Assembly (NCBI GenBank): GCA_002839825.1
Contig: PGYU01000001.1
Location: forward strand, 462,698 to 526,697
DNA: 64,000 bases
DNA from: Ignavibacteriae bacterium HGW-Ignavibacteriae-1
Lineage (GTDB): Bacteria > Bacteroidota > Ignavibacteria > Kapaibacteriales > UBA2268
Reading direction: 5' to 3'
In this document: positions 89 to 59,746 of the stretch, piece by piece
How the letters are laid out: each line of letters begins with the position of its first letter
How positions within the stretch are numbered: position 1 is the stretch's first letter
The notes under the pieces: model-generated
The model's input: only the letters and a program-made list of their open reading frames with translations
Database searches by the model: none
Told to the model about the DNA's origin: nothing
Position numbers and translations under genes: made by a program

Positions 89-282
89 AATTATAGTCTA
101 AACAAGTGATTATTGACACATCAATCAAACTTAATGCGACCATTTTAATCGAATATGTGAATAATTTATACCATAAACAGATTTTCAAATATTATTTCAA
201 AAGTCGCATATTTACTCAAAATTAAGTATTGAATACATCGTTCCTACTTTTTATATTTGTAACATTTTTGGCATTTTTTGAG

Positions 283-3200
283 ATGATAAATCTTAACTCT
301 GCTTTTGAAGATGAATTGTATTTTAGTTTTTTAAAAGACCCTGATTCTGTCAGCAAAGAATGGAAAGAGTATTTCCAAAGTATTCACGGGAAATCAATTT
401 ATGTGATTGATGAAGGCAATAGACCAATTCCTTCGAGTAGTCGAGAAAATGTTGATAATAAAACTACTGCCTGGAATAATGGTAATTCCGGTTTTAAAAG
501 GAATGGTGGTTTCGATAAATCCGGTGGTGAACTGACTCCCTTGAATGAAATGGAGCAAAGCAATGCTTATCAAATGTTGGAAAGTTTGGAAGTTCCCACA
601 GCTTCATCAACGAGAACTATTCCTGTCAAAGCATTAGACGAAAATAGAAGAATTATAAATCGTTACTTAGTCAAACTAAAGCGTGATAGGGTTTCCTTTA
701 CACATCTACTTGCTTGGGCAACTATCAAAGCCTTGATGAAATTCCCAAATCTAAATGATACTTTCGAGGTAATTGACGGAAAACCTTACCGCGTAAAACG
801 AAATGCCATAAATGTTGGTTTGGCAATAGATGTCATTGCAAAAGATGGTGTGAGATTGCTTGTAATCCCAAATATCAAAAACGTTCAAGATATGAAATTT
901 GATGATTATATCGAAGAATTTAATAATTTGATTGAAAGGGCACGAGCTAACAAATTGGAATACAATGATTTTGTTGATACCACTTTCACTCTTACAAATC
1001 CGGGAATGATTGGGACAACTTCGTCACAGCCGAGATTATTCAAAGGGCAGGGTGTGATTATTTCCACAGGCTCAATTGATTACCCGACAGAATTGCAAGC
1101 TGTTCGCCCGGAAGTGCTGACTACTCTTGCAGTTTCCAAAGTTGTAAATATCACTAATACCTACGACCATAGAATAATTCAAGGTGCAGAATCAGCGGAA
1201 TTTTTGGCTCAAATCAACAAATTATTCCTTGGTGAAGAACAGTTCTATGATCAGATGTTCTATAGTCTGAAAATTCCATTTGAACCTATCAAATGGGCAA
1301 AAGACAGTTCAAACGGCAAATTCAGCTTCTTCAATGTCGAAAATGAAGTTGAAAAGGGTGCCCACGTTATTCAGATGCTGAATGCTTACCGAGTTCGTGG
1401 TCATTTGCTGGCTTCAGTCAATCCATTAGGGCTTGAAACATATTATTATCCCGAGTTAGACCCGGCATATTATGGTTTCACAATTTGGGACCTCGATAGA
1501 GTCTTTCATGCAGATGACAACTGGGACGAAAATAATTTACCGCTTCGAGATATTATCGAGATTTTGCGAGAGACCTATTGCGGCTCGACCGGAATAGAAT
1601 TTATGCACATCCAAAGCCCCGAAAAGAAAGATTGGATTAAGCGTAGATTGGAAACTACCCGCAATACAATCGAATACTCCCAAGACGAGAAAATCGGTAT
1701 TATGCATAAATTGATTGATGCGGAAGTTTTCGAAAATTATTTGCATACAAAATTTGTAGGTAGCAAGAGATTTTCAATCGAAGGTGGCGAAGCTGTCATA
1801 GTTATGCTTGATAAAATTTTCGAAGCCGCTGCAGAAGCCGAATTAAGCACAATTGTATTGGGTATGGCGCATCGGGGCAGACTCAACGTACTTGTAAATA
1901 ACATCGGCAAGAAATACAACAAAATTTTTAATGAATTTGAAGGTATTATTGACCCAAAATCTTACCAAGGTTCGGGCGATGTCAAGTACCATCTGGGTTC
2001 TAAAGGGACTTATACAAACGAAAATAATAAATCAATCAAAGTCATACTTTCTCCGAATCCTTCGCATCTCGAATTAGTTGACCCTGTGATTGAAGGTATG
2101 GCTCGTGCACTCGAAAACGAAATGGGGGACAGGACGTACTCCCAAGTATTGCCTGTGCTTGTTCATGGAGACGCAGCCTTTGCCGGACAAGGAATTGTAG
2201 CCGAGACTTTGAATATGTCTGAATTAGATGGTTACAAAACCGGTGGTACAATTCATGTGATTATCAATAATCAAATCGGATTCACCACTACGATTGATTC
2301 CGCAAGGTCAAGCATATATGCAACTGATATTGCAAAAATGATTCAAACTCCTATTATTCATGTTAATGGTAATGACCCCGAAGCAGTTAGTTCGGCTGCA
2401 AAATTTGCTTTTGAATATAGGACTAAATTCCGTAATGATGTGATTATTGATATACTTTGCTATAGAAAATACGGACATAACGAAGCTGACGAGCCAAGCT
2501 ACACGCAACCTTTGCTCTATAAGAAAATCAAATCTATGCAGAATGTTGCCAAACTGTATGAGCAACAACTTATACACGAAAATGTTGTCTCACGTGAGCA
2601 AATCAACGAGTACTACGACCAATTGAAAGAAAAACTGGATTCAGCTTATGCCAATAGGAAGGATATTGCTCTCAGTAGCTCTCTTCAATTATTGAGTAAG
2701 CAAGAAACGATTTTCGATGATTTTGACAGCAAAGTATCTGAAGAAATTATCAATGAAGTAACTCATGCTTTGACAAATGTGCCCGAAGGATTTAAAATTA
2801 ATCCAAAGTTGGCTACATTATTGCAAAAACGTGCTGATATGGTCAACTCAGATAAGCCGCAGATAGATTGGGCAATGGCTGAGCTTTTGGCATTTGGTAC
2901 GCTACTGCTCGAAGGGAAAGAAGTCAGATTTTCGGGTCAAGATTCAAGACGTGGCACTTTCAGCCAACGTCACGCAGTGCTGACTGATATGATTACAGAA
3001 ATTGATTATATATCGCTTAATCATATTAGAAAGCAACAAAGTGTACTACGAATATTCGATAGTCCTTTATCAGAGGTAGCCGTCTTAGGCTTCGAATACG
3101 GTTATAGTGTTATTGCAGCGAATGGTTTGACTTTATGGGAAGCCCAATTTGGTGATTTTGCAAATAATGCCCAAACCATTGTTGACCAATATATGGCATG

Positions 3201-3888
3201 TGGTGAAGTAAAATGGGGGCAAACTTCGAATTTGGTTATGTTGTTGCCTCACGGCTATGACGGACAGGGCTCGGAACATTCGAGCGCCAGACTGGAACGT
3301 TATCTTCAGTTATGTGCCGAATATAATTTGATAGTGGGTAATTTCACCACACCTTCAAATTATTTCCACGCTATACGTCGCCAAACTTTGATGCCATACA
3401 AAATGCCGATGATTTTGATGACACCAAAAGGTATGTTGAGACACCCACTAAAAGTAGCATCAATGGACGACCTGACAAAAGGCAAATTCAATCACATAAT
3501 TGACGACAACTCAATTGACAAAAATCAAGTGAGGAAAGTTTTGCTTTGCACCGGGAAAGTTTATTTTGACATTGAAACTGAAAGAATAAAACGAAATATC
3601 AGCGATATAGCGATAGTTCGGATTGAGCAACTTTATCCATTCCATCAAGTATTATTCGATGAAATCATTGCATCATTCAAAAATACCAAAGAGATTTGTT
3701 GGGTGCAAGAAGAACCTAAAAACATGGGTGCTTGGAACTATTTGCATCAGATTTTTATCGAAAGCGATTCGCTGTCAACCACCAAAGTTCAATACATAGG
3801 TAGAAAAGCCAGCGCTGCAACTGCTACCGGAATTCACCAAATTCACTTAGCCGAACAACACGAAATTGTTGAAACGGCTCTGAGCTGA
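283..3888 (+). CDS. sucA: 2-oxoglutarate dehydrogenase E1 component with an embedded E2o (succinyltransferase) catalytic domain (OdhA/Kgd-type fusion)
   Basis: The N-terminal SucA motif (FLKDPDSVSKEWKEYF) is followed by a Gly/Asn linker. Then comes a 2-oxoacid dehydrogenase acyltransferase catalytic domain (DHRIIQGAESAEFL). The E1o core follows (AYRVRGHLLASVNPLG, ThDP-binding region, C-terminal transketolase-like domain). The ORF track starts at TTG 229; the ATG at 283 gives a typical SucA N-terminus. No lipoyl domain is present. Confidence 0.9.
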   Translation: MINLNSAFEDELYFSFLKDPDSVSKEWKEYFQSIHGKSIYVIDEGNRPIPSSSRENVDNKTTAWNNGNSGFKRNGGFDKSGGELTPLNEMEQSNAYQMLESLEVPTASSTRTIPVKALDENRRIINRYLVKLKRDRVSFTHLLAWATIKALMKFPNLNDTFEVIDGKPYRVKRNAINVGLAIDVIAKDGVRLLVIPNIKNVQDMKFDDYIEEFNNLIERARANKLEYNDFVDTTFTLTNPGMIGTTSSQPRLFKGQGVIISTGSIDYPTELQAVRPEVLTTLAVSKVVNITNTYDHRIIQGAESAEFLAQINKLFLGEEQFYDQMFYSLKIPFEPIKWAKDSSNGKFSFFNVENEVEKGAHVIQMLNAYRVRGHLLASVNPLGLETYYYPELDPAYYGFTIWDLDRVFHADDNWDENNLPLRDIIEILRETYCGSTGIEFMHIQSPEKKDWIKRRLETTRNTIEYSQDEKIGIMHKLIDAEVFENYLHTKFVGSKRFSIEGGEAVIVMLDKIFEAAAEAELSTIVLGMAHRGRLNVLVNNIGKKYNKIFNEFEGIIDPKSYQGSGDVKYHLGSKGTYTNENNKSIKVILSPNPSHLELVDPVIEGMARALENEMGDRTYSQVLPVLVHGDAAFAGQGIVAETLNMSELDGYKTGGTIHVIINNQIGFTTTIDSARSSIYATDIAKMIQTPIIHVNGNDPEAVSSAAKFAFEYRTKFRNDVIIDILCYRKYGHNEADEPSYTQPLLYKKIKSMQNVAKLYEQQLIHENVVSREQINEYYDQLKEKLDSAYANRKDIALSSSLQLLSKQETIFDDFDSKVSEEIINEVTHALTNVPEGFKINPKLATLLQKRADMVNSDKPQIDWAMAELLAFGTLLLEGKEVRFSGQDSRRGTFSQRHAVLTDMITEIDYISLNHIRKQQSVLRIFDSPLSEVAVLGFEYGYSVIAANGLTLWEAQFGDFANNAQTIVDQYMACGEVKWGQTSNLVMLLPHGYDGQGSEHSSARLERYLQLCAEYNLIVGNFTTPSNYFHAIRRQTLMPYKMPMILMTPKGMLRHPLKVASMDDLTKGKFNHIIDDNSIDKNQVRKVLLCTGKVYFDIETERIKRNISDIAIVRIEQLYPFHQVLFDEIIASFKNTKEICWVQEEPKNMGAWNYLHQIFIESDSLSTTKVQYIGRKASAATATGIHQIHLAEQHEIVETALS

Positions 3889-3908: not shown

Positions 3909-3939
3909 GAAGCTGTCCAAATGGGCAGCTTTTTTTTTG
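3909..3939 (+). terminator. Rho-independent terminator after the sucA-like gene
   Basis: Hairpin aagctgtcc-aaat-gggcagctt followed by T9, 20 nt after the stop codon. Confidence 0.7.
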
Positions 3940-3958
3940 TTGTTTGGTTATGTATGTA

Positions 3959-4158
3959 GGGACAGAACAGCGTTCTGTACGTAACATGGACCCATGAATT
4001 TATTCGAGGGAGAAAGAGAATTGACGTAGATGTGATTAATTCATCCGATGACTCCCGCTTTCTGTCCCACAGCTTTAATAAATTCAATTCATCTGAATAG
4101 TTCAAGTCATCGGATGAATAAAAAGCGTGAAAATATTGAACAGAACGCTGTCCTGTCC
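3959..4158. repeat. ~200 bp palindromic intergenic element; the outer arms gggacagaacagcgttctgt (3959-3978) and acagaacgctgtcctgtcc (4140-4158) are inverted copies
   Basis: The reverse complement of the 3' arm matches the 5' arm apart from 2 mismatches. The element encloses the 4038-4123 hairpin element. Confidence 0.6.
4038..4123. repeat. ~85 bp hairpin element, copy 1 (15 bp inverted repeat AATTCATCCGATGACTCC / AGTCATCGGATGAATAAA around a ~50 nt loop)
   Basis: The perfect inverted repeat TTCATCCGATGACT/AGTCATCGGATGAA is read directly from the sequence. A second copy sits at 5783-5866. Confidence 0.7.
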
Positions 4159-4307
4159 TTACGTCTCGGGTTTTTCTCCCTCTCCTTCGGAGAGGGTCGG
4201 GGTGAGGTGTATTTGTTTTTTTTCCAATCTGTAACTTTTTCACTTCACGATGTGTATTTAAAATATTGGAAAATGGGAAAAATTTCCTATTTTTAAAGAA
4301 ATTGATA

Positions 4308-5654
4308 ATGAGAGTACTTATGAAAATGAAATCATTCCTTGTAGCCGCTATAGCGATATTGTTGTTATGCCAATTCACACCTTTATGGACGCAGGAAGAA
4401 ATGGAGTTGGAATTAGTCTTGGAAGTTAAGTACTCAGGTCTTTTTTCGCAAGCATTTGAACAAGTTTGCAAAAAAGGGAAATTTCTTGTTAATTCATCCG
4501 ATGGAGAACGTTATCTATATGACCTTAATACAGGTGAACTAATTTATAAAACAACAAAAGGAACTGAATCTTCCCTTGTAGTTAATGATGTTGGAGATAA
4601 GTTTTATATCCGGAACATTTCAGAAAACACATTTGAAGAATATGATATTAAAACAAAAGTTTTGATACAAAAAATTCCGCATGTAATAAACGGGTATAAA
4701 TATCCGTTAAGAATATCACCTGATAATGTCTATTTTGAATTTTACGAGCATCCTCATTCAATCGTGTTTAAAGACCTATATACGGGAACAGTGTTAGATA
4801 GCTTTAAAGTGCCAAATTCTCCAGACAACGCTACATTTCGTATGGTTGATGAAGGAGAGTTCTCTTATGATGGTAGATATTTTAAGTTCGGATTAGTAAA
4901 TCAATTCAATACTGAAGCAGGAGCGAATTGGTTTGTATATGACAGACAAGCGAAGGAAATTGTATTTTTAAGATATATTGAGCCTGCACTTGGCGGTGAA
5001 TTGTATTTGGAGTTTTACAATACAAAAAATTGGATGTTCGTTTCACATAGAATGAAATTGAATGATGATGACATAGCATATAATTATTTAAGCGAATTCG
5101 ATTTAGATGTAAGAGAATTTAAAAATCACATAAAAATAAACAAATTAGCAAATTTTACAAGTGCTAGGTTGAGATTGGATGATAAAATGTATACTTACAG
5201 ATTAATATATCCTAATGGTGATTCAACTAATGTTCAAAGGTTTTACGATTATGAAAACAAGAGAGTTATTGATTACACCCTTAAACACTGGATAAACATG
5301 TTTGATTCAAACAATATTTGGTATTGGCATGTTGATGTATTACGAAAGTATCGTTTTGATTGGACTGTAGGAGTAGAAGACGAAACAAATTTGGGTGAGC
5401 AAATACTATATCCAAATCCGGCAACGGAATATATTGAAATAGCTGTAGATATCAACCCTACGGTTAACCGTAGGGTTGATGAAATTTCAGAGATTCATAT
5501 TTTCAACACGCTCGGTGAATGTGTGATTGAATTAGCAGATGTCCAACATCTTGGAGATGTTGGACATCTACAACGCATTAATGTGTCGCATCTACCCCGT
5601 GGCGTGTACTATATCCGTATCGGCAGCCGGACGCAAATGTTTGTTAAAGTCTGA
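4308..5654 (+). CDS. Secreted protein with a C-terminal T9SS (Por_Secre_tail) sorting domain
   Basis: Signal peptide MKMKSFLVAAIAILLLCQF. The C-terminus ILYPNPATEYIEIAV...GVYYIRIGSRTQMFVKV is typical of T9SS type A CTDs. The ORF track start at 4266 is probably too early; ATGs at 4308 and 4320 are better candidates. Confidence 0.75.
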   Translation: MRVLMKMKSFLVAAIAILLLCQFTPLWTQEEMELELVLEVKYSGLFSQAFEQVCKKGKFLVNSSDGERYLYDLNTGELIYKTTKGTESSLVVNDVGDKFYIRNISENTFEEYDIKTKVLIQKIPHVINGYKYPLRISPDNVYFEFYEHPHSIVFKDLYTGTVLDSFKVPNSPDNATFRMVDEGEFSYDGRYFKFGLVNQFNTEAGANWFVYDRQAKEIVFLRYIEPALGGELYLEFYNTKNWMFVSHRMKLNDDDIAYNYLSEFDLDVREFKNHIKINKLANFTSARLRLDDKMYTYRLIYPNGDSTNVQRFYDYENKRVIDYTLKHWINMFDSNNIWYWHVDVLRKYRFDWTVGVEDETNLGEQILYPNPATEYIEIAVDINPTVNRRVDEISEIHIFNTLGECVIELADVQHLGDVGHLQRINVSHLPRGVYYIRIGSRTQMFVKV

Positions 5655-5657
5655 AAT

Positions 5658-5708
5658 ATGATTTGTTTGATTTGAATGATTTGTTTGATTTGAATGATTT
5701 GTGTGATT
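5658..5708. repeat. Tandem direct repeat, 18 bp unit atgatttgtttgatttga, about 2.8 copies
   Basis: Read directly: units at 5658-5675 and 5676-5693, with a degenerate partial copy at 5694-5708. Confidence 0.7.
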
Positions 5709-5718
5709 ACGCTTTTCT

Positions 5719-5752
5719 AACCTTCCGAAGGTTCCAAACCTTCGGAAGGTTT
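5719..5752. repeat. Twin mirror-image hairpins aaccttccgaaggtt / aaaccttcggaaggttt
   Basis: Two adjacent short stem-loops with GC-rich stems. Together they form a larger palindrome. Confidence 0.6.
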
Positions 5753-5782
5753 CGTCTATATTAACAAACTGACGGGCATTTT

Positions 5783-5866
5783 AATTCATCCGATGACTCC
5801 CTAATATTTGTCACAACTTTGATCAATTCATTTATCTTAATTCTCCAAGTCATCGGATGAATAAAT
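5783..5866. repeat. ~85 bp hairpin element, copy 2 (same 15 bp inverted repeat as 4038-4123)
   Basis: aattcatccgatgactcc ... agtcatcggatgaataaa, with a ~45 nt loop that is roughly 70-75% similar to copy 1. It lies in direct orientation relative to copy 1, on the other side of the 4308-5654 gene. Confidence 0.7.
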
Positions 5867-5925
5867 GAATTTTAGAGCTTCTTAATCACCAGAATCATAC
5901 AAATCATAGTTCAGACAAGTTTGTT

Positions 5926-5948
5926 CCGTCAGTTGTAACAACTGACGG
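5926..5948. repeat. Perfect 23 bp palindrome ccgtcagttgt-a-acaactgacgg
   Basis: An 11 bp perfect inverted repeat read directly from the sequence. The related motif aactgacggg also occurs at 5766-5776. Confidence 0.7.
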
Positions 5949-5961
5949 GACAATATGCCCC

Positions 5962-5999
5962 AAAAAAAAAGACTGACTCTTTGAAAGTCAGTCTTTTTT
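5962..5999. terminator. Bidirectional rho-independent terminator
   Basis: An A9 run, then hairpin agactgactc-tttgaa-agtcagtct, then a T6 run. It is placed to terminate the minus-strand lipoprotein gene (6019-6756) and plus-strand read-through. Confidence 0.65.
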
Positions 6000-6018: not shown

Positions 6019-6756
6019 TTATTGATTTGATTGAGCATTAACATTTTCGGATAATGTGTTTGCCACACTGATTTTTGTACCATCCGCAAAGATGATTTCC
6101 GACGGTACCCAAATTCTTCTCATTTGGTCCCATTGCGTGCGCAATGTCATGTCGTTATTATTATTAGGGTCATGAACAAATGGATAAACGATGCGTCTTG
6201 TTTCGCCGGCTTTGATAGGTTGGTTACCCAATACCACAGGAATTTTACCCATAATAAAGTTCTTTACGAGTTGGCGATTTTGAGTATAAATTTGCAAAGC
6301 ACCTTTGAAATCAACAATGTCTTTGTCAGAACGGTTCGTAAATTCAAATACAATCGAATTCAATTCTCTGTTGTTCACTGAATCTGCTTGTGGAGCTAAT
6401 CCAACCAAAAGAAATTTGTGGTTGAGTACCAATTCGGAACGTGTAGCAACATTCGCCAGATTTGCAGCCATCTGATTTCTTTCGTTTTCAATCTCTAATT
6501 CAATAACTTGGGCGAGAGTTTTACCTACGAGCGAATCAACGCTTCTTGATAATAAGGTGGTCATCCCGGTTGATAGATATCTCATTTCATCGGCGGTGAG
6601 AAGTGGGTCTTTTCCCGCTTCGGTGATAATTTGGACCAAATTATCTTTAGTAATTGACTCGTTCAAAAGCGGTGATTTCTTTGCTTTTTGTTCGCATCCG
6701 GTAAAAATTACAAAAGCAATTGCAATGATAGTAAGCAATTTAATTGTAATACGCAT
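6019..6756 (-). CDS. Hypothetical lipoprotein
   Basis: Lipobox MRITIKLLTIIAIAFVIFTGC. No domain I recognise. Confidence 0.6.
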   Translation of the reverse strand: MRITIKLLTIIAIAFVIFTGCEQKAKKSPLLNESITKDNLVQIITEAGKDPLLTADEMRYLSTGMTTLLSRSVDSLVGKTLAQVIELEIENERNQMAANLANVATRSELVLNHKFLLVGLAPQADSVNNRELNSIVFEFTNRSDKDIVDFKGALQIYTQNRQLVKNFIMGKIPVVLGNQPIKAGETRRIVYPFVHDPNNNNDMTLRTQWDQMRRIWVPSEIIFADGTKISVANTLSENVNAQSNQ

Positions 6757-6842: not shown

Positions 6843-7754
6843 TTATAGCATTCCAAGCAAGTGACCTTGGATAACTCCGTATCTCAATCCTTTGGCACTT
6901 ACAACGCATTCCGCGATTTTGAATTCTTCAAAAATTGTTCTCAATATCAATGTGCCTGCGAGTATCAGGTTAGCTCTGCCAGGACTTACGAGATGTTTGG
7001 TAGCGATTTCTTCGACAGTTGAGCCATAGTACAAATCAAAAAGCTCATTGAGTTTTTCAATTGTCAAATTGTAGTTGTCAATTTCTCTCACTTTATAATC
7101 ATGTATCCCACAAGCTGTAGCTGCGAGAGTCGTTGCAGTTCCGGCAACTGCAAAGATTTGATCATATTTTGGCATTTCGGCTTTCACATCATCCAGCAAC
7201 TCGCGAATGTACCGGACAGTTTCATCAATTTGCGATTGAGTAGGAGGGTGGCTCATATTGAAAAATCTCTCGAAAATCCTGACTGCACCTATATCAAGGC
7301 TTTGTTTAAACAAGATTTGTTTGTCTTTGCCGATGATAATTTCTGTACTGCCGCCGCCAATGTCAATTACCAGAGATGTTTTAGGGGAATTGACAGTGCC
7401 GATAAAGCTCAAAGTTGCTTCTTTTTTGCCATCAATGATGAACACCGGGTGCTGGAGAATAGATTCGAAGGACATTTTTACTTGAGCACTATTCTTAGCG
7501 TCACGCATAGCGCTCGTTGCTACTGTTATGATGCTCTGTACATCAAACTTTTTGCAAATGTTGACACATTTTTGAAGAATTTTCTCGGCTCTTAGGATTG
7601 CCTGTTCGTTTATCAATCCGGTTTTGTCGGTATCTTCACCAAGTCTGGCGATAGCATACTCCTCGTGAAGAATTTTTATCTCATTATTTAGAGATATTTG
7701 AGCAACAAGCATCAAAATAGTGTTTGTCCCAATATCAATCGAAGCTAATCTCAT
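6843..7754 (-). CDS. ppx: Ppx/GppA family phosphatase (exopolyphosphatase / pppGpp phosphohydrolase)
   Basis: N-terminal MRLASIDIGTNT, a DIGGGSTE motif and the actin-like ASKH fold signature. The probable start is the MRLAS methionine (ORF track start 7787). Confidence 0.8.
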   Translation of the reverse strand: MRLASIDIGTNTILMLVAQISLNNEIKILHEEYAIARLGEDTDKTGLINEQAILRAEKILQKCVNICKKFDVQSIITVATSAMRDAKNSAQVKMSFESILQHPVFIIDGKKEATLSFIGTVNSPKTSLVIDIGGGSTEIIIGKDKQILFKQSLDIGAVRIFERFFNMSHPPTQSQIDETVRYIRELLDDVKAEMPKYDQIFAVAGTATTLAATACGIHDYKVREIDNYNLTIEKLNELFDLYYGSTVEEIATKHLVSPGRANLILAGTLILRTIFEEFKIAECVVSAKGLRYGVIQGHLLGML

Positions 7755-52175: not shown

Positions 52176-55100
52176 ATGAAAATTTTCATTTTTATCATTT
52201 TGATTTTTTTTGCTTCAATAATCCATTTGTTAAGCCAAAAAGAGACTACAAATTGGAATTTTGGTCAATATGGAGCCATTACATTCAATACTCATAATAA
52301 TGAACCTATTTTTGTCAATGGTTCAAAACTCGATTCATGGGAAGGTTGTGCTTCAATTTCAGATAAAAATGGAAATCTTTTGTTTTATACCAATGGGGTC
52401 ACCGTTTGGAACAAAAATAATATTGTGATGGATGGTGGAAGCGGTTTATTAGGACACTACTCTGCAACGCAATCATCAATAGCTTTTCGACGACCTTTAC
52501 ATGCAAATCAATATTATATTTTTACTGTTGATGCTGTAGAATCAAATAGTCGTGGGTTAAACATGTCTATTGTGGATATGAGTCAGAATGATGGTTTAGG
52601 TAAGGTCACCACCAAAAACATTAATATTCATCCTAAACCGATTGAACGGGTTTTGGCAATTCCACATGCAAATCGAAAGGACTTCTGGGTTATTGTTCAC
52701 ATATCTCAAACAACAAATTATTTAGCATATAAAGTTGATGAAAATGGAGTTGTAGGTGATCCGGTAATAAGTAATGGCATAAATACTGCCAATAGACCTA
52801 CCGGGCATACATTGAAGTCAACTATTGACGGCAAACGTATAGCATCAACTCACTCATTTGCCGGTGTCATCGAGTTGTTTGATTTTGATAATTATTCAGG
52901 TAAGATGACATTAACAAATAATTTACAACATCCATACTTCTCATGGCCCTATGGAGTTGAGTTTTCTCCAGATGGTAAATACTTATATGCTTCATTGTTT
53001 AAACCTTGTAGATTAATTCAGATGGATGTCTCAAAACAATCAGAACAAGAAATCCTTAATAGCATGATTATTTTAGCTGAGAACCAAACTGCAACATTTT
53101 ATTATGGTTCATTGCAGTTAGGAATCAATGGTAAAATCTATGTAGCTCAAGACGAAGATCAATATTTGGGCGTAATTAAAAAACCAAATGAACTTGGAAA
53201 GGACTGTGGTTTTGTTAGTAAAGGTTTGGCAATGCTGAATGGTGCATCCAGTAGATTAGGATTGCCAACATTTGTACAAAATTATATTGCACAAGTTAGT
53301 CATTGTGATCCTAAAGGCGATGAATTGGTTACCTATGGAGATTTTGAAAGCAAAGAAGTGTTCTTTTCAAGTAGTTTAAATGAAATCAGTTTAGATAATA
53401 TTAATGAATTTCAAAATCCCGGTTCATTTGCGATTACAAATGTGAATCCTATCAATCAAAATGACAGTTGTGTACAATTTGGAAAAGACAATAATTTTGT
53501 ATTTTGTCACACATTAACGGGTTTAAATGACGTAATAACGTATGAGACGACAGTCGAACCAAATTCTGAATATTTGTTTTCATTTGATTTTATCCCTGTA
53601 TCAGACAAATCATTCTCTAACCTATCTATTTTTATGAATGGCGTAGAAATTCAAAATCCCTTTTTACATGCTGAGGGTCCTTGCGTTTTAAAGAATTATG
53701 TATATGAATGGACTTCTGGCGCTAATCAAAATCTTCAAATCATAATTAGTGTCAATTCCGAATCTCCCGAAATTTTCGCTTTGGATAACATTTCATTGAG
53801 AAGCTGTGATTGTCCAACTTTACAACTTAAGAAATTGAGTCATGATCTATGTTATGGTGGAATAATTCAATTATTTGGATATAATGAAGATGTTTATTCC
53901 CATAGTTGGAAACCAAATATTGATATTGATGATATAACTGCACCAAACCCAAATGTTAAACCAAAGAAATCCACTGTTTATTCATTAACTTTGACTAACA
54001 AAATTACAGGTTGTGTTTATTATGATTCTGTTTGGGTAAATGTATTGCCAATTAAAGACATTGAAATTAGTGGGGACAATTATCTTTGCTCAGGTGATAG
54101 TACCGAAGTTTTCATTCAAGGGGATTTTGAAAATATAGAATGGTCAACAGGACAGTCTTCAAAAAGTATTATTATCAAATCGCCGGGAACCTATTTAGTA
54201 AAATGTTTTGATTCTAATGGCTGCGAATACAATGGAAGTATTGATGTATATTGGATTGATGTTCCTGATATTCAAATTATAGGACCCAATTCGGTTTGCA
54301 AAGATGAATCCTTTGAATTGGAAGTAGATTATAAAGATGCTAAACGATACTTGTGGTCGACAGGCGAAAGTACTCCCAAAATAACAAAATTAGTACCTGG
54401 TACCTATACTGTCGAAATTATATTGAGTGACGGATGTTCAACTACATTAACTAAGACCGTTAATGAAATAAGCCCTGCAAAGCTGGAACCTCAACATATT
54501 GATATAGGTGAAGTTTGCTTGCAGGAAATAAGTCAAATTGATAAAAGCATATTGAATTCGAATGATTTCAATGTTCTTATTGACAAGATTATTTTGAAAT
54601 CTGCTTTGATTGGTTTAACTCTTTCTTATGAGTCACCCTTGCCTTATAATTTAAAACCAAAAGGAAATTTTAAATTGAATTTTGAATATTCAACTATGGT
54701 TTATGACAATGTTTTAGTAGATACTTTATTAGTTATTTTAACAGAGCCATGTTATTCTGAAATTAGTATACCAATTACAGGCAAAATATCTGAAACGAAG
54801 TCAAAAGTTTGGATAGCTGATACAACTGTTATTGCCGGTGATTACATATGTATTCCAATTTATGCAACAATGTTTTGTGAAGAATTTATTACCGGTAAAT
54901 TTAAATATAGATTAATGTGTGACATGAGTAAATCTTTTTTCGAACCTGATTCAGTAGCTTCAGGGACAATGGTTGTTGATGACAAGCATCTCAGATATTA
55001 TATTATTGAAATTGAGGACACGGCGATCCTCGAAGAAAACAACAATATTGTAAATTATATTTGTGGAACTGTTTTATCCCCTGATTCATCAAAATATTCA

Positions 55101-55481
55101 GTTAATATAAGCGATTTCGAATGGTCTGATATTCAAACGGAAACTGATATAGACAATGGATTATTCGATGTTGATTATTGTGTTTATACTATCCGACAGC
55201 TAATTTCTATCAAACTTTCTTCAATTACATTAAAGCCAAATGTAACTGATGGTGCATTTGCCGCAAACATTGTTAGTTCCGAAGTTGGTAATTTCAATAT
55301 TATCATTACAAATTCGATTGGTAACGAAATATATAGAAGTTCTTGGGTCAGAAATTCTAAGTCTGAACCTGATGAAAATGAGATGTTGATTGACTTATCT
55401 GAATTTCCTTCGGGTGTTTATAACGTCATTATGATTTCACCTTGGAGTACTAACAGAGAGAAAGTGCTATTAGTTAAATAG
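52176..55481 (+). CDS. Giant T9SS cargo protein (paralog A): beta-propeller (YVTN-like) + CBM-like beta-sandwich + 3 Ig-like Cys repeats + cohesin-like domain + T9SS CTD
   Basis: Signal peptide. GVEFSPDGKYLYASLF propeller blades. WSTG[DQE][ST]T-containing ~75 aa repeats. The C-terminus FNIIITNSIGNEIYRSSW...GVYNVIMISPWSTNREKVLLVK. Confidence 0.7.
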   Translation: MKIFIFIILIFFASIIHLLSQKETTNWNFGQYGAITFNTHNNEPIFVNGSKLDSWEGCASISDKNGNLLFYTNGVTVWNKNNIVMDGGSGLLGHYSATQSSIAFRRPLHANQYYIFTVDAVESNSRGLNMSIVDMSQNDGLGKVTTKNINIHPKPIERVLAIPHANRKDFWVIVHISQTTNYLAYKVDENGVVGDPVISNGINTANRPTGHTLKSTIDGKRIASTHSFAGVIELFDFDNYSGKMTLTNNLQHPYFSWPYGVEFSPDGKYLYASLFKPCRLIQMDVSKQSEQEILNSMIILAENQTATFYYGSLQLGINGKIYVAQDEDQYLGVIKKPNELGKDCGFVSKGLAMLNGASSRLGLPTFVQNYIAQVSHCDPKGDELVTYGDFESKEVFFSSSLNEISLDNINEFQNPGSFAITNVNPINQNDSCVQFGKDNNFVFCHTLTGLNDVITYETTVEPNSEYLFSFDFIPVSDKSFSNLSIFMNGVEIQNPFLHAEGPCVLKNYVYEWTSGANQNLQIIISVNSESPEIFALDNISLRSCDCPTLQLKKLSHDLCYGGIIQLFGYNEDVYSHSWKPNIDIDDITAPNPNVKPKKSTVYSLTLTNKITGCVYYDSVWVNVLPIKDIEISGDNYLCSGDSTEVFIQGDFENIEWSTGQSSKSIIIKSPGTYLVKCFDSNGCEYNGSIDVYWIDVPDIQIIGPNSVCKDESFELEVDYKDAKRYLWSTGESTPKITKLVPGTYTVEIILSDGCSTTLTKTVNEISPAKLEPQHIDIGEVCLQEISQIDKSILNSNDFNVLIDKIILKSALIGLTLSYESPLPYNLKPKGNFKLNFEYSTMVYDNVLVDTLLVILTEPCYSEISIPITGKISETKSKVWIADTTVIAGDYICIPIYATMFCEEFITGKFKYRLMCDMSKSFFEPDSVASGTMVVDDKHLRYYIIEIEDTAILEENNNIVNYICGTVLSPDSSKYSVNISDFEWSDIQTETDIDNGLFDVDYCVYTIRQLISIKLSSITLKPNVTDGAFAANIVSSEVGNFNIIITNSIGNEIYRSSWVRNSKSEPDENEMLIDLSEFPSGVYNVIMISPWSTNREKVLLVK

Positions 55482-55606
55482 TGTGTTCTGAGCTTAAATT
55501 TGTAGAAAGATTGAATAGAATTTTGTATTCTTGAATTATATAAATTTTCTGTGATTCTTTAGAGTCACCAAATATGGAATTTTCTTAATTATGAATCGGA
55601 GTCTTT

Positions 55607-58600
55607 ATGAAAAAGCTCTTAGTTTTAATAGTGGGTCTAATAATAATACATCACTATGCTTTATGCCAAAAAGAAGCAAGTAACTGGAACTTTGGCAGAA
55701 ATGCAGCAATGACATTCAATACCCCTGATAAAGAACCTGTTTTTGTAAATGGGTCACAACTAAATTCATGGGAAGGGTGCGCAACAATATCAGATTCAGA
55801 AGGTAATTTACTATTCTATACCAACGGAGTCACTGTTTGGAATAAAAACAATGCCATTATGGATGGTGGTACAGGATTGCTTGGTGATAACTCAGCAACT
55901 CAATCTTCAGTCGCTTTTCAACATCCTACTCAGGCAAAAATGTATTATATTTTCACTGTCGGTTCAGTAGAGTCAAATACAAAAGGTTTTAATTATTCAT
56001 TTGTTGACATGAACGCAAATGGAGGATTAGGTAAAGTTATTACTAAAAATGTCAAAATTCATGATAAACCAATTGAAAGAATAGCTGTTATTCCACATGC
56101 GAACAAAAAAGCTTATTGGGTAATTGTCCATATCACAGGGACTACTGAATATTTAGCATACAAAGTTGATGAGTTTGGTGTAGCTACAGTACCGATTGTA
56201 AGTAATGGTACTCTTAAAAGTACTAAATTGACCGGACATACGCTAAAGGCATCTTTAGATGGTACAAGAATAGCCTCCACACATTCTTTTGCAAGCGTTA
56301 TCGAATTGTTTGATTTTGATGCTTTTTCAGGTAAAATGACTTTAACTCATAATCTATTGCACCCAAGTTTTACATGGCCATATGGAGTAGAATTTTCTCC
56401 GGACGGGAAACTTTTATATGCGTCTTTGTTTTTCACATGTCGTTTAGTCCAATTTGACGTTACTCTAAAAACAGCGGAACAAATATTAAATAGCATGGTA
56501 GTTTTAGGTGAAAACAAAAGCGCAACATTCTATTTTGGTACTATACAACTTGGTATAAATGGAAAAATTTATGTTGCACAAGACGACAATACGTATTTAG
56601 GGGTAATTAGTAAACCAAACCAAAAGGGAGAAGCTTGTGATTTTGTAGAGTATGGCTTTCGATTGTTATCCGGTTCTAGAAGTGGATTAGGATTACCATC
56701 TTTTGTACAGGCTTTTTTTGCTCCCAAAGAATATTGTGAACCCAAGGGAGATGACTTAATCATAAATGGAGATTTTGAAGTAAGTCCCTCCAATTTTACA
56801 TCTACATTAAGTTTGGTAGATGCTAATGCACAATTTCAAACACCTTCAACATATATTATAACAAAAGTGAATCCAATCAATACTAATGATCCATGCTCAC
56901 TCTATGGTACTATTAATAAATTCATGTTTGTACATACCAAAACTGGATTGAATGAAATAATGAAATTTGATTTGAAAGTTGAAAAGAACATAGAATATAT
57001 TCTCTCATTTGATTTTGTACCTATTGATGACAAAGTGTTTTCAAACTTAAGAATAGATATTGATGGTGAAGAAATTGCATCAGATTTTATTCATTCTGAT
57101 GGTTTGTGTCAATTAATAAATTATAAATTTACATGGAATTCTAAAGAAAAGGAAGATGTTGAATTAACATTCAAGATGATTTCATCATCCCCTGAAAAAT
57201 TTGCACTTGATAACATTTCATTTAGAAGTTGTGAATGTTCTAAAAGAGAATTTGAATCTTCAGAGCATCAAATCTGTTATGGTAAAAGTGTAAAATTAGA
57301 GGGAAATGACAATCAAAAATATATCCATAAATGGGAGCCCAATTTTTGGATTGATAATCCAAATTCACCTACACCTACAGTTTCTCCAACAAAAAGTACG
57401 ATTTACCTTTTAAAATTGACGGATAGAATAACTGGATGTGAATATTTTGATACAGTAAAGGTTGAAGTAATCCCGGCGGTTGAAATTGAAATTTTGGGAG
57501 ATAATCTTATCTGTGTGGGTGATAGTACAGAACTGTCAATTGAAGGAAATTTAAATTCTATCATTTGGAGTACGGGCGATACAACACTGAGTATTATAGT
57601 CTCAACTCCGGGTACCTATGAAGTATCAGGTATTGATTCAAATGGTTGTGAACATAAAGGACAAATTCAAGTTAAATTAATTGAATCTCCGGGTTTAGCA
57701 ATTCTCGGACCTGTATTGGTTTGTTTCGAAGAAGAATATGAATTAGAGGTTAATTTAGATGCTTTCGGATATTTATGGTCAACCGGTGATACCACTAAAA
57801 AGATAAAAAGAGTAGGTGCTGGATTTTTCACTGTCCTTGTAACAATTGAAGGTGGTTGTATTGTCGAATTATCTATTGATGTTGGTTTGAAGGAGGATGG
57901 AGAGGTTAGAATAAGAGGTCCTTTCGAGGTTTGTATTGAGGAAAATTTTGAACTTGAAGCCCTAATTTTGGCTGATAAATACATTTGGTCAACTGGTGAC
58001 TCAACAAAAATCATAAAACATAAAGGTCCCGGAGTTGTTAACTTAGAAGTCGTTACTAAAGACGGTTGTAGAAGTATAGGTTCATACGAAATTAAGTTAA
58101 AACCTGATGGTGCTCTAAATATAATTGGAAAAACCGAAGCATGTTTGAACGAGGATGTAACTTTGATGACTGATTTTGAAGGTGTAAAATATAATTGGTC
58201 AACAGGCGATACCACCAAACAGATTATTCACCGAGGTCCGGGAACTATAAGTGTCGAAGTAATAGATTCAAACGGATGCCGAAGTATTGGTTCGTTTGTA
58301 ATTGAACTTATCCCTGATGGAATTGTAGAAATTATCGGACCAAAGAGAGTTTGTATATATGAAGAGTTCGAACTGATTGCTGATATTGATGGAGAAAAGT
58401 ACATTTGGTCAACCGGTGATACCACCAAAAAGATAAAACACATTGGTCCAGGTAAAATAACTGTGGAAGTCATAACATCTGAAGGATGTGTAAGTAGAGG
58501 AGGAATTGAGATAGAATTGATTCCTGATGCCGATATAGATATTTTTGGTCCAACTTCAATTTGTGAAGGCGAAAATTCTATAATTTCCATATCCGGTAAT

Positions 58601-59746
58601 TTTCAAAAAATCACATGGAGCACCGGTGATACTACCGAAATTGTCACGATTACAAAAGGTGGTACTTACAACGTACAAGCTATTGATATTTACGGTTGTA
58701 GATGGATTGGTTCGATAAAAATAACTGAAATTCCAAAAATTCATTTTGAGGAAATGAAAATTGATTTAGGTGAATTATGTATTTTTGAAACCAATCAGTC
58801 TAATTATGAAATTGTAAATTCAAACGATTTTGCTTTTACAATCAGTAAAATAATGCTTCAAAATTCATCGAGCGGACAAATTGAACTTCAATATAATCAG
58901 TCATTGCCTTTGGTTTTAAACAATCTCCAAACTCTTGAATTCTCGTTGAAGTTCTCACCTTTAGTTTCGGCTGGTAAAATTTATGATACAATAACAGTTT
59001 TTATTTCCGAACCATGTTATACAGAATTCCGAATACCAATAACAGGAACTGTAATCAAAACGGAAACAAAGGTTTGGATAGCCGATACAACTGTTGCTGC
59101 CGGCGAATACATATGTATTCCAATTCATGCAACTATGTTTTGTGAAGAGTTCATTACAGGTGAATTCAAATATAGATTAGTGTGTGACCTGAGCAAATCT
59201 TTCTTCGAACCTGATTCAGTAGCTTCTGGGACAATGGTTGTTGATGACAAGAATCTCAGATATTATATAATTGAAATAGAGGACATCGCCATACTTGAAG
59301 AAAGTAACAATATTGTTAATTATATCTGTGGAACCGTATTATCTCCTGATTCAACAAAGTTTTCCGTTAATATAAACGATTTTGAATGGACTGGTTTTGA
59401 AACAGAAACTAAGATGGACAATGGCTTATTCGATGTGGAATATTGTGTTTATACAATCCGACAGCTAATTTATATCAAACTTACTTCAATTACTTTAAAG
59501 CCAAATGTAACGGAAGGTGCTTTTACTGCAAACGTTGTTAGTTCCGAAGTTGGAAATTTCAATATTATCATTACTAATTCTATTGGAAACGAAGTTTATA
59601 GACGTTCTTGGGTCAGAAATTCCAAGTCTGAACCTGAAGAAAATGAAATGTTGATTGACTTATCCGAATATCCATCCGGCATTTACAACGTTATTATGAT
59701 TTCGCCGTGGAGTACTAAGACGGAGAAAGTGATGTTAGTAAAATAG
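55607..59746 (+). CDS. Giant T9SS cargo protein (paralog B): same architecture with about 7-8 Ig-like Cys repeats
   Basis: The N-terminal ~380 aa and C-terminal ~240 aa are highly similar to paralog A. The tandem repeats have motif G..C.....L......Y.WSTGDTT..I....PG.Y.V.V....GC. The T9SS CTD is ...GIYNVIMISPWSTKTEKVMLVK. Confidence 0.7.
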   Translation: MKKLLVLIVGLIIIHHYALCQKEASNWNFGRNAAMTFNTPDKEPVFVNGSQLNSWEGCATISDSEGNLLFYTNGVTVWNKNNAIMDGGTGLLGDNSATQSSVAFQHPTQAKMYYIFTVGSVESNTKGFNYSFVDMNANGGLGKVITKNVKIHDKPIERIAVIPHANKKAYWVIVHITGTTEYLAYKVDEFGVATVPIVSNGTLKSTKLTGHTLKASLDGTRIASTHSFASVIELFDFDAFSGKMTLTHNLLHPSFTWPYGVEFSPDGKLLYASLFFTCRLVQFDVTLKTAEQILNSMVVLGENKSATFYFGTIQLGINGKIYVAQDDNTYLGVISKPNQKGEACDFVEYGFRLLSGSRSGLGLPSFVQAFFAPKEYCEPKGDDLIINGDFEVSPSNFTSTLSLVDANAQFQTPSTYIITKVNPINTNDPCSLYGTINKFMFVHTKTGLNEIMKFDLKVEKNIEYILSFDFVPIDDKVFSNLRIDIDGEEIASDFIHSDGLCQLINYKFTWNSKEKEDVELTFKMISSSPEKFALDNISFRSCECSKREFESSEHQICYGKSVKLEGNDNQKYIHKWEPNFWIDNPNSPTPTVSPTKSTIYLLKLTDRITGCEYFDTVKVEVIPAVEIEILGDNLICVGDSTELSIEGNLNSIIWSTGDTTLSIIVSTPGTYEVSGIDSNGCEHKGQIQVKLIESPGLAILGPVLVCFEEEYELEVNLDAFGYLWSTGDTTKKIKRVGAGFFTVLVTIEGGCIVELSIDVGLKEDGEVRIRGPFEVCIEENFELEALILADKYIWSTGDSTKIIKHKGPGVVNLEVVTKDGCRSIGSYEIKLKPDGALNIIGKTEACLNEDVTLMTDFEGVKYNWSTGDTTKQIIHRGPGTISVEVIDSNGCRSIGSFVIELIPDGIVEIIGPKRVCIYEEFELIADIDGEKYIWSTGDTTKKIKHIGPGKITVEVITSEGCVSRGGIEIELIPDADIDIFGPTSICEGENSIISISGNFQKITWSTGDTTEIVTITKGGTYNVQAIDIYGCRWIGSIKITEIPKIHFEEMKIDLGELCIFETNQSNYEIVNSNDFAFTISKIMLQNSSSGQIELQYNQSLPLVLNNLQTLEFSLKFSPLVSAGKIYDTITVFISEPCYTEFRIPITGTVIKTETKVWIADTTVAAGEYICIPIHATMFCEEFITGEFKYRLVCDLSKSFFEPDSVASGTMVVDDKNLRYYIIEIEDIAILEESNNIVNYICGTVLSPDSTKFSVNINDFEWTGFETETKMDNGLFDVEYCVYTIRQLIYIKLTSITLKPNVTEGAFTANVVSSEVGNFNIIITNSIGNEVYRRSWVRNSKSEPEENEMLIDLSEYPSGIYNVIMISPWSTKTEKVMLVK

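Follow-up and report, generated by a model that had tools for sequence, protein, structure and literature searches.

Repetitive extragenic palindromic (REP) sequences are located chiefly 3' of genes, pair up as inverted dimers and sometimes occur within genes (PMC3733652). They are known to stabilise the mRNA upstream of them, and a class carrying a GTAG tag has been described (PMC3733652). Bacteroidetes have REP-associated tyrosine transposases (RAYTs) of subclasses 2.4 and 2.6, whose hairpins are long or atypical (PMC6006769). Miniature inverted-repeat transposable elements, known as MITEs, are ~97% genus-specific (PMC11602168). Here we describe two hairpin-forming repeats of ~85 bp in a 64,000-nucleotide stretch of DNA (the window) from Ignavibacteriae bacterium HGW-Ignavibacteriae-1 (assembly GCA_002839825.1, contig PGYU01000001.1, positions 462,698 to 526,697 of the forward strand). 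They lie on either side of a gene for a cargo protein of the type IX secretion system (T9SS), and are probably long-loop copies of a non-autonomous, REP/MITE-like mobile palindromic DNA repeat, referred to below as the TTCATCC palindromic element. The idea that the hairpins mark the edges of an inserted gene cassette is not supported at this locus.

The hairpin pair and its arms

The two copies and the gene between them are as follows.

4036-4122, + strand: copy 1 of the TTCATCC palindromic element; arms 4036-4053 and 4105-4122, 51-nt loop; covariance-model score 105.9 bits
5781-5865, + strand, oriented like copy 1: copy 2 of this element; arms 5781-5798 and 5848-5865, 49-nt loop; covariance-model score 99.9 bits
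4320-5654, + strand: T9SS cargo gene, 444 aa, with a Por_Secre_tail C-terminal sorting domain (100%-identity database protein; Pfam)

An inverted-repeat search of the window gave arms of 18 nt for both copies (TTAATTCATCCGATGACT and AGTCATCGGATGAATAAA), 94% complementary with one mismatch, in elements 85-87 bp long. The perfect core of the arms is 15 bp (ATTCATCCGATGACT) and is identical in copy 1 and copy 2; a preliminary description of this DNA had noted a perfect 15-bp inverted repeat, but the string it quoted is 14 nt long. A 14-mer of the arm has exactly four exact occurrences in the 64 kb, which are the four arms of the two copies. When up to two mismatches are allowed it is found at five sites (the four arms and one other), against a mean of 0.82 in shuffled controls, none of 100 of which reached five. 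The loops had been thought to be of related sequence, and they are: they share 69% identity in the same orientation, compared with ~44% after one of them is reverse-complemented. The copies are therefore direct, and they bracket the gene in the arrangement originally proposed. Each arm also contains a near-perfect 11-bp palindrome, TCATC-N-GATGA, as read from the sequence.

Both copies are predicted to fold into long hairpins (-27.5 and -23.9 kcal/mol, with z-scores of -5.3 and -4.7), while no consistent or shared fold was predicted for the interiors of their loops. In the 64 kb, copies 1 and 2 are the sole elements recovered by a covariance model of six family members, which detects no further, diverged copies of the window-type element; the next match has E=0.2. 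No covariation was found in the hairpin element. A search of Rfam, which the preliminary description had recommended, produced nothing relevant: at gathering thresholds a tRNA is the sole match in the window and neither hairpin is matched, while at E-values up to 10 copy 2 is overlapped by nothing and copy 1 only by sub-threshold matches to MIR2617, MIR1919 and SNOR75. The latter are plant miRNA/snoRNA matches of 17-21 bits, compared with gathering scores of 46.5-85. The open reading frames (ORFs) overlapping the hairpins are without any Pfam match, a promoter/terminator scan placed no site within either hairpin or its loop, and on reading the sequence no T-run is present 3' of either copy. 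No description of this element was found in Rfam or in the searchable literature (T9SS together with palindromes; RAYTs and REP doublets forming hairpins, or REPINs, in Bacteroidota), and a full-text search for the arm sequence returned only an unrelated crustacean paper.

Distribution and mobility of the element

The family is defined by the arm pair ATTCATCCGATGACT/AGTCATCGGATGAAT. One representative genome per species was scanned with the pattern TTCATCCGATGACT-N35-65-AGTCATCGGATGAA, exact arms being required. Exact-arm hairpins were found at 17 loci in these genomes, in Ignavibacteria, Chlorobiota, two Pedobacter isolates, Draconibacterium, Bacteroidales and Balneolaceae, and a scan of metagenomes added 10 further loci. 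The exact arms thus recur in many genomes; the number of exact-arm matches expected by chance in the genome collection, calculated from its size, is ~3e-4. A related metagenome-assembled genome (MAG) has three exact long-form loci, where the window has two copies. In viral contigs neither the short-loop nor the long-loop pattern had any match, and blastn against PLSDB plasmids and INPHARED phages gave chance partial matches only; there is thus no evidence of a phage or plasmid origin.

The arms, abbreviated here as F (TTCATCCGATGACT) and R (AGTCATCGGATGAA), are found in several arrangements. The loop is 3 nt in loci L001, L012, L015, L023 and L027, which gives a short form (F-NNN-R) of 31-35 bp, and 10-11 nt in L028; elsewhere it is 35-65 nt and mostly of unrelated sequence. 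In Pedobacter and at L013 the conserved unit is reversed (AGTCATCGGATGAA-linker-TTCATCCGATGACT), often in tandem arrays, and dimers and arrays of the R-linker-F type are present at L003, L008 and L013. The proposal that R...F is the 'true' unit in general was rejected because both arrangements exist together with the 3-nt-loop form. An array of the CRISPR type was considered for L013 and L027, and was rejected because the 'spacers' are themselves repeated. In Pedobacter sp. CFBP9032 (L003 5420-6724), AGTCATCGGATGAA-19nt-TTCATCCGATGACT units bound a 1.2-kb segment that carries a PKD-domain gene and lies between mraZ/mraW and pgk; at the same mraZ/mraW-pgk locus of P. psychrotolerans (L008 5241-5383) the flanks are ~86.5% identical, and there is one unit and no gene.

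A loop of the window type is found in only six copies, all in Kapabacteria-like genomes: copies 1 and 2, those at L005, L017 and L022 and, more distantly, that at L009. These six have covariance-model scores of 76-106 bits and every other copy at most 49 bits. Among the five close members the arms are invariant and the loops are 69-78% identical pairwise, the sixth copy (L009) being 56-58% identical to the others. Since the arms are invariant while the loops diverge, the constrained part appears to be the stem, and the arm pair (A)ATTCATCCGATGACT / AGTCATCGGATGAAT(A) may be the only part of the element under constraint. No two of the five close members differ more than copies 1 and 2 do, at 69% identity compared with 74-78% for each to the copies at other loci.

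In 30 of 31 intergenic clusters the element is found on the 3' side of one gene or more, often 2-25 nt past the stop codon, a placement that matches the pattern described for REPs (PMC3733652). Two of the MAGs with copies, 'Desulfobulbaceae bacterium CROMO_A_116' (L005, L009, L017 and L019; GCA_018335795.1) and 'uncultured Hyphomicrobiales' (L013), share repeats with Kapabacteria-like genomes. Their contigs carry T9SS cargo or Fib_succ_major (Fibrobacter-type) genes, and either these labels are probably wrong or the bins are contaminated.

The same locus could be compared in relatives, as had been advised in the preliminary description. The cargo protein has a 100% database match, an 80% ortholog (P0002) and a 62% homolog (P0003), and its named relatives are Candidatus Kapabacteria. 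At the locus of the 80% ortholog (L019-L021) the cargo gene is syntenic, the downstream genes being the same as in the window and including those for a 245-aa protein, Ppx/GppA and PrmA, and neither long hairpin is present, upstream or downstream. Similarity between window and ortholog resumes only at 4205-4309 (94%) and at 5893-5998 (96%), the second of these stretches comprising the right end of the downstream repeat and a terminator-like hairpin; between the two anchors the ortholog carries different palindromes. Three independent assemblies of this relative (L019, L020 and L021) end ~410-470 bp upstream of the cargo gene, in a palindrome-rich region.

The 62% homolog (L022) has a different gene neighbourhood, yet the same upstream repeat mosaic. 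Here a homolog of copy 1 is located at the identical right flank (aaaagcgtgaaaatattg...) as an exact reverse complement of the whole element. The six oriented copies have the asymmetric ends AA-TTCATCC...GGATGAA-TA, and in L022 the end bases are inverted too, so insertion of the whole element in either orientation fits better than a crossover within the arms.

Several small palindromes are also found in frame within coding sequences, including two in the sorting domain of the cargo protein.

5451-5480, + strand: perfect 30-bp palindrome, in frame, at sorting-domain slot 1 (INPTVNRRVD; repeat search)
5537-5569, + strand: perfect 15+3+15 palindrome, in frame, at sorting-domain slot 2 (DVQHLGDVGHL; repeat search)

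Slot 1 holds either INPTVNRRVD (window) or KPSEGFEPSEG, which is the CCTTCGGAAGG palindrome (L020 and L022). Slot 2 holds DVQHLGDVGHL in the window, VETRHAVSLQ, a GTAG REP, in L022, and IHPMTTSHQMN, a short-form TTCATCC element, in the 80% ortholog. The codons around both slots are conserved; in relatives the slots lie at 1565-1601 and 1653-1683 of L020 and at 7108-7144 of L022. In a hybrid histidine kinase of Ignavibacteria (L001 7077-7152), two tandem 45-nt short-form copies are inserted in frame in the linker between kinase and receiver (MINSSDDWESSDESQ, twice), and in an alignment of eight kinase sequences the extra MINSSDDWESSDESQ residues are seen in the L001 protein alone. As read from the sequence, the short form is open in two of its three frames on both strands, and can thus survive in frame inside genes. 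Mobility of the element is thus supported by its absence at the orthologous locus, by the occupation of one site in both orientations and by in-frame insertions that homologs lack. Together with the recurrence of the arms in many genomes, these observations bear out the suggestion, one of several made at the outset, of a MITE- or REP-like mobile repeat.

Each window copy is itself nested within other repeats. Eight palindrome families were defined at the locus, and within the 64 kb all of them are restricted to the surroundings of the cargo gene. The repeats that lie around the gene, outside the coding sequence, are listed below.

3956-3979, + strand: GTAG-tagged REP (GTAG GGACAGAAC AGC GTTCTGT), left member of an inverted pair enclosing copy 1
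3991-4010, unstranded: CCCATGAATTTATTCGAGGG palindrome, a separate repeat family, also in L020 and L022
4138-4162, - strand: partner REP (reverse complement GTAAGGACAGGACAGCGTTCTGTTC), right member of the inverted pair enclosing copy 1
4176-4209, + strand: CTCCCTCTCCTTCGGAGAGGGTCGGGGTGAGGTG repeat, present in L009 at 97.5% identity (L009 2714-2753)
5649-5916, unstranded: MITE-like element of ~270 bp with terminal inverted repeats GTCTGAAMTATGATTT...AAATCATAGTTCAGAC, enclosing copy 2
5719-5751, unstranded: palindrome AACCTTCCGAAGGTT cca AACCTTCGGAAGGTT, also in frame in the sorting domains of L020 and L022 and in the loops of L013
5921-5953, unstranded: palindrome TTGTTCCGTCAGTTGT a ACAACTGACGGGACAA, conserved in the 80% ortholog, with repeat copies in L009 and L022

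Copy 1 lies between two inverted GTAG REPs, a class already described (PMC3733652), and copy 2 inside the MITE-like element. The two REPs resemble a REPIN doublet, and the ~160 nt between them hold both copy 1 and the CCCATGAATTTATTCGAGGG palindrome; the REP at 3956-3979 recurs beside homologous genes in L020 and L022. The tail of the CTCCCTCTCCTTCGGAGAGGGTCGGGGTGAGGTG repeat (GGGGTGAGGTGATTGTTTTCGGTC) has undergone tandem expansion in L022 (5790-5880). Downstream of the gene, copy 2 and the CCTTCGGAAGG palindrome are found together inside an element with the ends GTCTGAAC...GTTCAGAC, and at L013 the CCTTCGGAAGG palindrome sits within a TTCATCC loop. The filled composite recurs at L005, where it is 89.7% identical over 175 nt and lies behind a sorting-domain pseudogene remnant. 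An 'empty' form of the MITE-like element, ~105 bp long and without insert, is present 3' of the L022 homolog (7312-7416), and the element is filled with nested palindromes in the window, in L005 and in L017 (3711-3935). Its ends can also be given as GTCTGAACTATGATTT / AAATCATAGTTCAGAC, and in the window it includes an 18-nt tandem duplication (5658-5693).

These observations suggest how the element may behave. In its behaviour the family resembles REP/REPIN or MITE elements: it is non-coding, lies mostly 3' of genes, and occurs singly, in pairs (head to head or tail to tail) and in tandem arrays. An enzyme encoded elsewhere would copy or move it. HUH/Y1 transposases impose conservation of the stem alone. 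The likeliest candidate would therefore be a HUH/Y1, RAYT-like transposase acting on single-stranded DNA and recognising the folded arms, given the lack of a target-site duplication, the conservation of the stem only and the long or atypical hairpins of certain RAYT subclasses in Bacteroidetes. If the element lands preferentially on hairpins extruded by other repeats, then the nesting of each window copy and the exchange of palindromes at the sorting-domain slots would follow. The cargo gene would not be carried by the hairpins; instead its long flanks and the sorting-domain loops would form a hot spot for at least eight small palindrome families, in which copies 1 and 2 may have arrived, or been inherited, separately. 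The intergenic flanks of the cargo gene, 377 and 364 nt, are the longest intergenic gaps of the 64 kb. That the gene is bracketed is probably a by-product of this hot spot, which takes in both flanks; the window copies are the least similar pair and are nested in different older repeats. As side effects, copy 2 may supply a stable stem-loop in the 3' untranslated region (UTR), copy 1 may create a cruciform-prone site upstream of the promoter, and the short direct repeats could occasionally delete or exchange the gene.

A broader proposal can be made tentatively, and we regard it as possible rather than probable. The Fibrobacterota-Chlorobiota-Bacteroidota (FCB) group may harbour an undescribed guild of small palindromes, moved by a conserved single-stranded DNA enzyme that targets extruded hairpins. 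Nesting and replacement at fixed slots, two of them in the T9SS sorting domain, would then keep reshaping the flanks of secreted-protein genes and the loops of their signal domains, and genes would occasionally be bracketed by direct repeats that allow their loss or exchange.

Alternative explanations for the bracketed gene

The alternatives depend in part on the organisation of the gene and of the non-coding DNA around it.

4205-4319, + strand: non-coding block conserved in the 80% ortholog and in L022, probably holding the cargo gene's promoter and 5' leader
4489-4503, + strand: 15-nt exact arm match (TTAATTCATCCGATG) within the cargo coding sequence, encoding VNSSD (repeat search)
5965-5999, unstranded: bidirectional terminator-like hairpin (A-run, 8-bp GC-containing stem, T-run), kept in the 80% ortholog

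The protein encoded between the hairpins has a Por_Secre_tail domain (E=2e-11), in agreement with a T9SS cargo gene; its description as highly expressed was an assumption of the preliminary description. Its start was initially placed at 4308; the matching database protein is 444 aa long, and a start codon at 4320 is therefore likely. The block at 4205-4319 is 94% identical in the 80% ortholog (4205-4309) and 89% in L022, and the repeat mosaic begins directly 5' of it; it is the probable promoter and 5' leader. The terminator of the upstream gene is called at 3909-3932 by the promoter/terminator scan. Copy 1 follows that terminator and precedes the conserved block, and is thus probably outside the cargo mRNA. 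Copy 2, between the stop codon and the hairpin at 5965-5999, is probably in the 3' UTR, and the latter hairpin may serve as a terminator common to the cargo gene and the convergent gene at 6019-6756. The DNA of the arm match at 4489-4503 is also conserved in the 62% homolog L022; the match may be a relic of an in-frame half-element or a coincidence.

Elsewhere in the window, ORF 229-3888 encodes a 2-oxoglutarate dehydrogenase E1 (1219 aa) with an N-terminal 2-oxoacid_dh acyltransferase (E2) catalytic domain, an OdhA/Kgd-like fusion that is better known from Actinobacteria. Two adjacent ORFs of 1101 and 1379 aa (52800-59284) have 300-nt stretches in common that are 71-84% identical, and one of them contains a 210-nt periodic repeat (57764-58452); they probably encode paralogous surface proteins.

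Several points weigh against a mobile repeat. The scans demanded exact arms, and the invariance of the arms therefore partly reflects how the copies were found; the L022 copy, which was retrieved through its protein homolog rather than a DNA pattern, has exact arms, and a short form in L020, from a mismatch-tolerant search, has one arm mismatch. The copy number looks low (two in the 64 kb, three exact long-form loci in the related MAG), and classical REPs are present in hundreds of copies. The arms are without the GTAG or CGTC tag of the described REP superfamilies. Target-site duplications had been proposed as a check, but in the six oriented copies none was seen outside AA-TTCATCC...GGATGAA-TA, nor does any clean empty site delimit the long form, the flanks being only A/T-rich. 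No recurrent transposase, integrase or invertase was found among 147 ORFs beside copies at 26 loci (considering the 25 most-shared of 165 matched families), and no Y1 transposase or recombinase among the families shared by at least two of these ORFs, within the same 25. The commonest family there is Por_Secre_tail, with 6 ORFs. Close to the cargo gene, from -5.7 to +7.6 kb, the called genes include no transposase, integrase, recombinase or invertase. The block of C-terminal domain plus composite that is shared with L005 could have been spread by recombination between paralogous T9SS genes. Lastly, exact arms are common to several classes and phyla, which is unusual for MITEs (PMC11602168) and for which reason a role of the arms in binding a host protein is retained as an option.

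In one form of that option the arms would be operator-like and bound by a DNA-binding protein that the FCB group has conserved, their hairpin geometry being incidental. It would account for the near-perfect 11-bp palindrome in each arm and for arms that stay identical across classes and phyla, as is atypical of MITEs (PMC11602168), while loops, spacing and arrangement (F...R, R...F and arrays) vary freely. However, the sites are overwhelmingly 3' of genes rather than in promoter regions, they occur in frame inside genes and in long tandem arrays, and the orthologous locus is without them. Moreover, no regulator gene is common to the neighbourhoods among the 25 most-shared families of the 147 ORFs, and we consider operators very unlikely. 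A selected role in RNA or DNA structure, in which the hairpins are conserved for function as mRNA 3'-end stabilisers or terminators of secreted-protein genes, is improbable too. In its favour, the hairpins have strong stems (-24 to -27 kcal/mol, z about -5), copy 2 lies between stop codon and terminator-like hairpin, the element is usually a few nt past a stop codon across loci, and REPs are known to stabilise upstream mRNA (PMC3733652). Yet copy 1, past the upstream terminator (3909-3932) and before the leader block, is probably not in the cargo mRNA at all, and neither hairpin is followed by a T-run or called as a terminator. The orientation of the loop is not conserved, the loops are without a shared fold and no Rfam family matches; copies within coding sequences cannot be terminators, and the ortholog manages without both copies.

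The preliminary description had also raised att-like scars of a cassette insertion, and more generally the hairpins could be recombination sites (attC-, pdif- or NIME/dRS3-like, NIME denoting neisserial intergenic mosaic elements) that bound an exchangeable module, the cargo gene being inserted, deleted or swapped between direct copies. A gene between direct copies fits this topology. So does the PKD-domain gene of Pedobacter sp. CFBP9032, bounded by R-19nt-F units where P. psychrotolerans has one unit and no gene, and at L013 arrays of units come between several genes for secreted-type proteins on the same strand. The Pedobacter pattern is, however, equally explained by RecA-type deletion between direct repeats, and repeat-mediated gain or loss of genes is possible in principle. 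At the window locus itself the 80% ortholog has the gene and the downstream synteny without either long hairpin, the two copies are the least similar pair (69%) and are embedded in different older repeats, and they contain neither attC cores (GTTRRRY) nor extrahelical bases. With no integrase or recombinase within -5.7/+7.6 kb either, the scars do not hold up, and recombination sites of any such kind are an unlikely explanation. Finally, copy 1 might be a miniature invertible switch (inverton) giving phase-variable expression of a surface or secreted protein, as its 18-bp inverted repeat encloses a 51-bp segment ~200 bp upstream of the start codon and the homologous L022 element has the opposite orientation at the same right flank. 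Neither loop has a promoter-like site, though, and the L022 inversion takes in asymmetric bases outside the arms, which fits re-insertion of the entire element and not a crossover within the arms. Copy 2, for its part, lies downstream of the cargo gene and inside another repeat, no invertase gene is present within the same -5.7/+7.6 kb, and known invertons are far longer than 51 bp; a switch of this kind is highly improbable.

Comparison with known repeat systems

A small mobile palindrome remains the probable identity of the TTCATCC element. Repeats of this sort probably break assemblies, create spurious ORFs and put 10-15 residues into real proteins, and should be taken into account in the annotation of Kapabacteria/Ignavibacteria genomes and of T9SS sorting domains. 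The identity of the arms across phyla and the systematic nesting in other palindromes are of specialist interest. The alternating in-frame palindromes of the sorting domain provide a natural test of insertion tolerance in the T9SS C-terminal domain.

The REP/REPIN-RAYT system is similar in several respects. Its members are short non-coding palindromes mainly 3' of genes, found as singlets, inverted dimers (in both arrangements) and clusters, and occasionally intragenic; the sequence of the stem is conserved and the length of the loop variable. Genuine GTAG-tagged REPs adjoin copy 1. The short form of the TTCATCC element, at 31-35 bp, falls within the 20-40 bp of the REP/REPIN palindromic unit, of which the window copies would be long-loop variants. 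In contrast to REPs, the TTCATCC element has the ends AATTCATCC...GGATGAATA and no GTAG or CGTC tag, GTAG being present in the adjacent repeat at 3956-3979. Its stem is 15-18 bp long compared with 6-13 bp in REPs, and its loops reach ~65 nt. Its copy number is low in the sampled genomes, the same arms are found across classes and phyla, and no RAYT gene is linked to it.

Bacterial MITEs, such as Correia/NEMIS of Neisseria, Nezha of cyanobacteria and RUP, are comparable to the window copies in that these are ~85 bp long, within the ~50-500 bp of a MITE, and non-coding, with perfect terminal inverted repeats. They also share an interior that varies between copies, presence or absence between relatives, and nesting within other elements. 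Several dispersed copies with presence or absence are found here as well, with two in the window, three loci in the related MAG and an ortholog without them. The TTCATCC element differs in that no target-site duplication is seen and a 31-35-bp short form exists, and none of the 32 loci showed a parent insertion sequence sharing its ends; MITE families are, in addition, normally genus-specific (PMC11602168).

Other systems share single features of the locus. Rickettsia palindromic elements (RPEs) are palindromic repeats that lie in frame in coding sequences and are tolerated in loops and linkers, as in the sorting-domain slots and the kinase linker here. RPEs, however, are 100-150 bp long and confined to Rickettsia, whereas the intragenic elements described here are 30-45 bp, and several unrelated palindromes alternate at one slot. 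In the dRS3/NIME arrays and minimal mobile elements of Neisseria, inverted-repeat units alternate with 50-150-bp spacers beside surface-protein genes, and the genes between repeats differ between relatives, as at L003/L008 and L013. The sequences are unrelated, and dRS3 is a target of phage integration, whereas no viral, phage or plasmid matches were obtained for the TTCATCC element. Integron attC sites, too, are imperfect palindromes that form hairpins; their ends are conserved and their centre varies, and they lie in direct orientation at either side of a gene. Unlike them, the hairpins described here have neither R''/R' (R/L) cores (RYYYAAC / GTTRRRY) nor extrahelical bases, their stem has no mismatch over 15 bp, no IntI gene lies within -5.7/+7.6 kb and the gene is present in an ortholog without the sites. 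Set beside these systems, the TTCATCC element itself is ordinary: a small mobile palindrome, and not a new RNA or cassette system.

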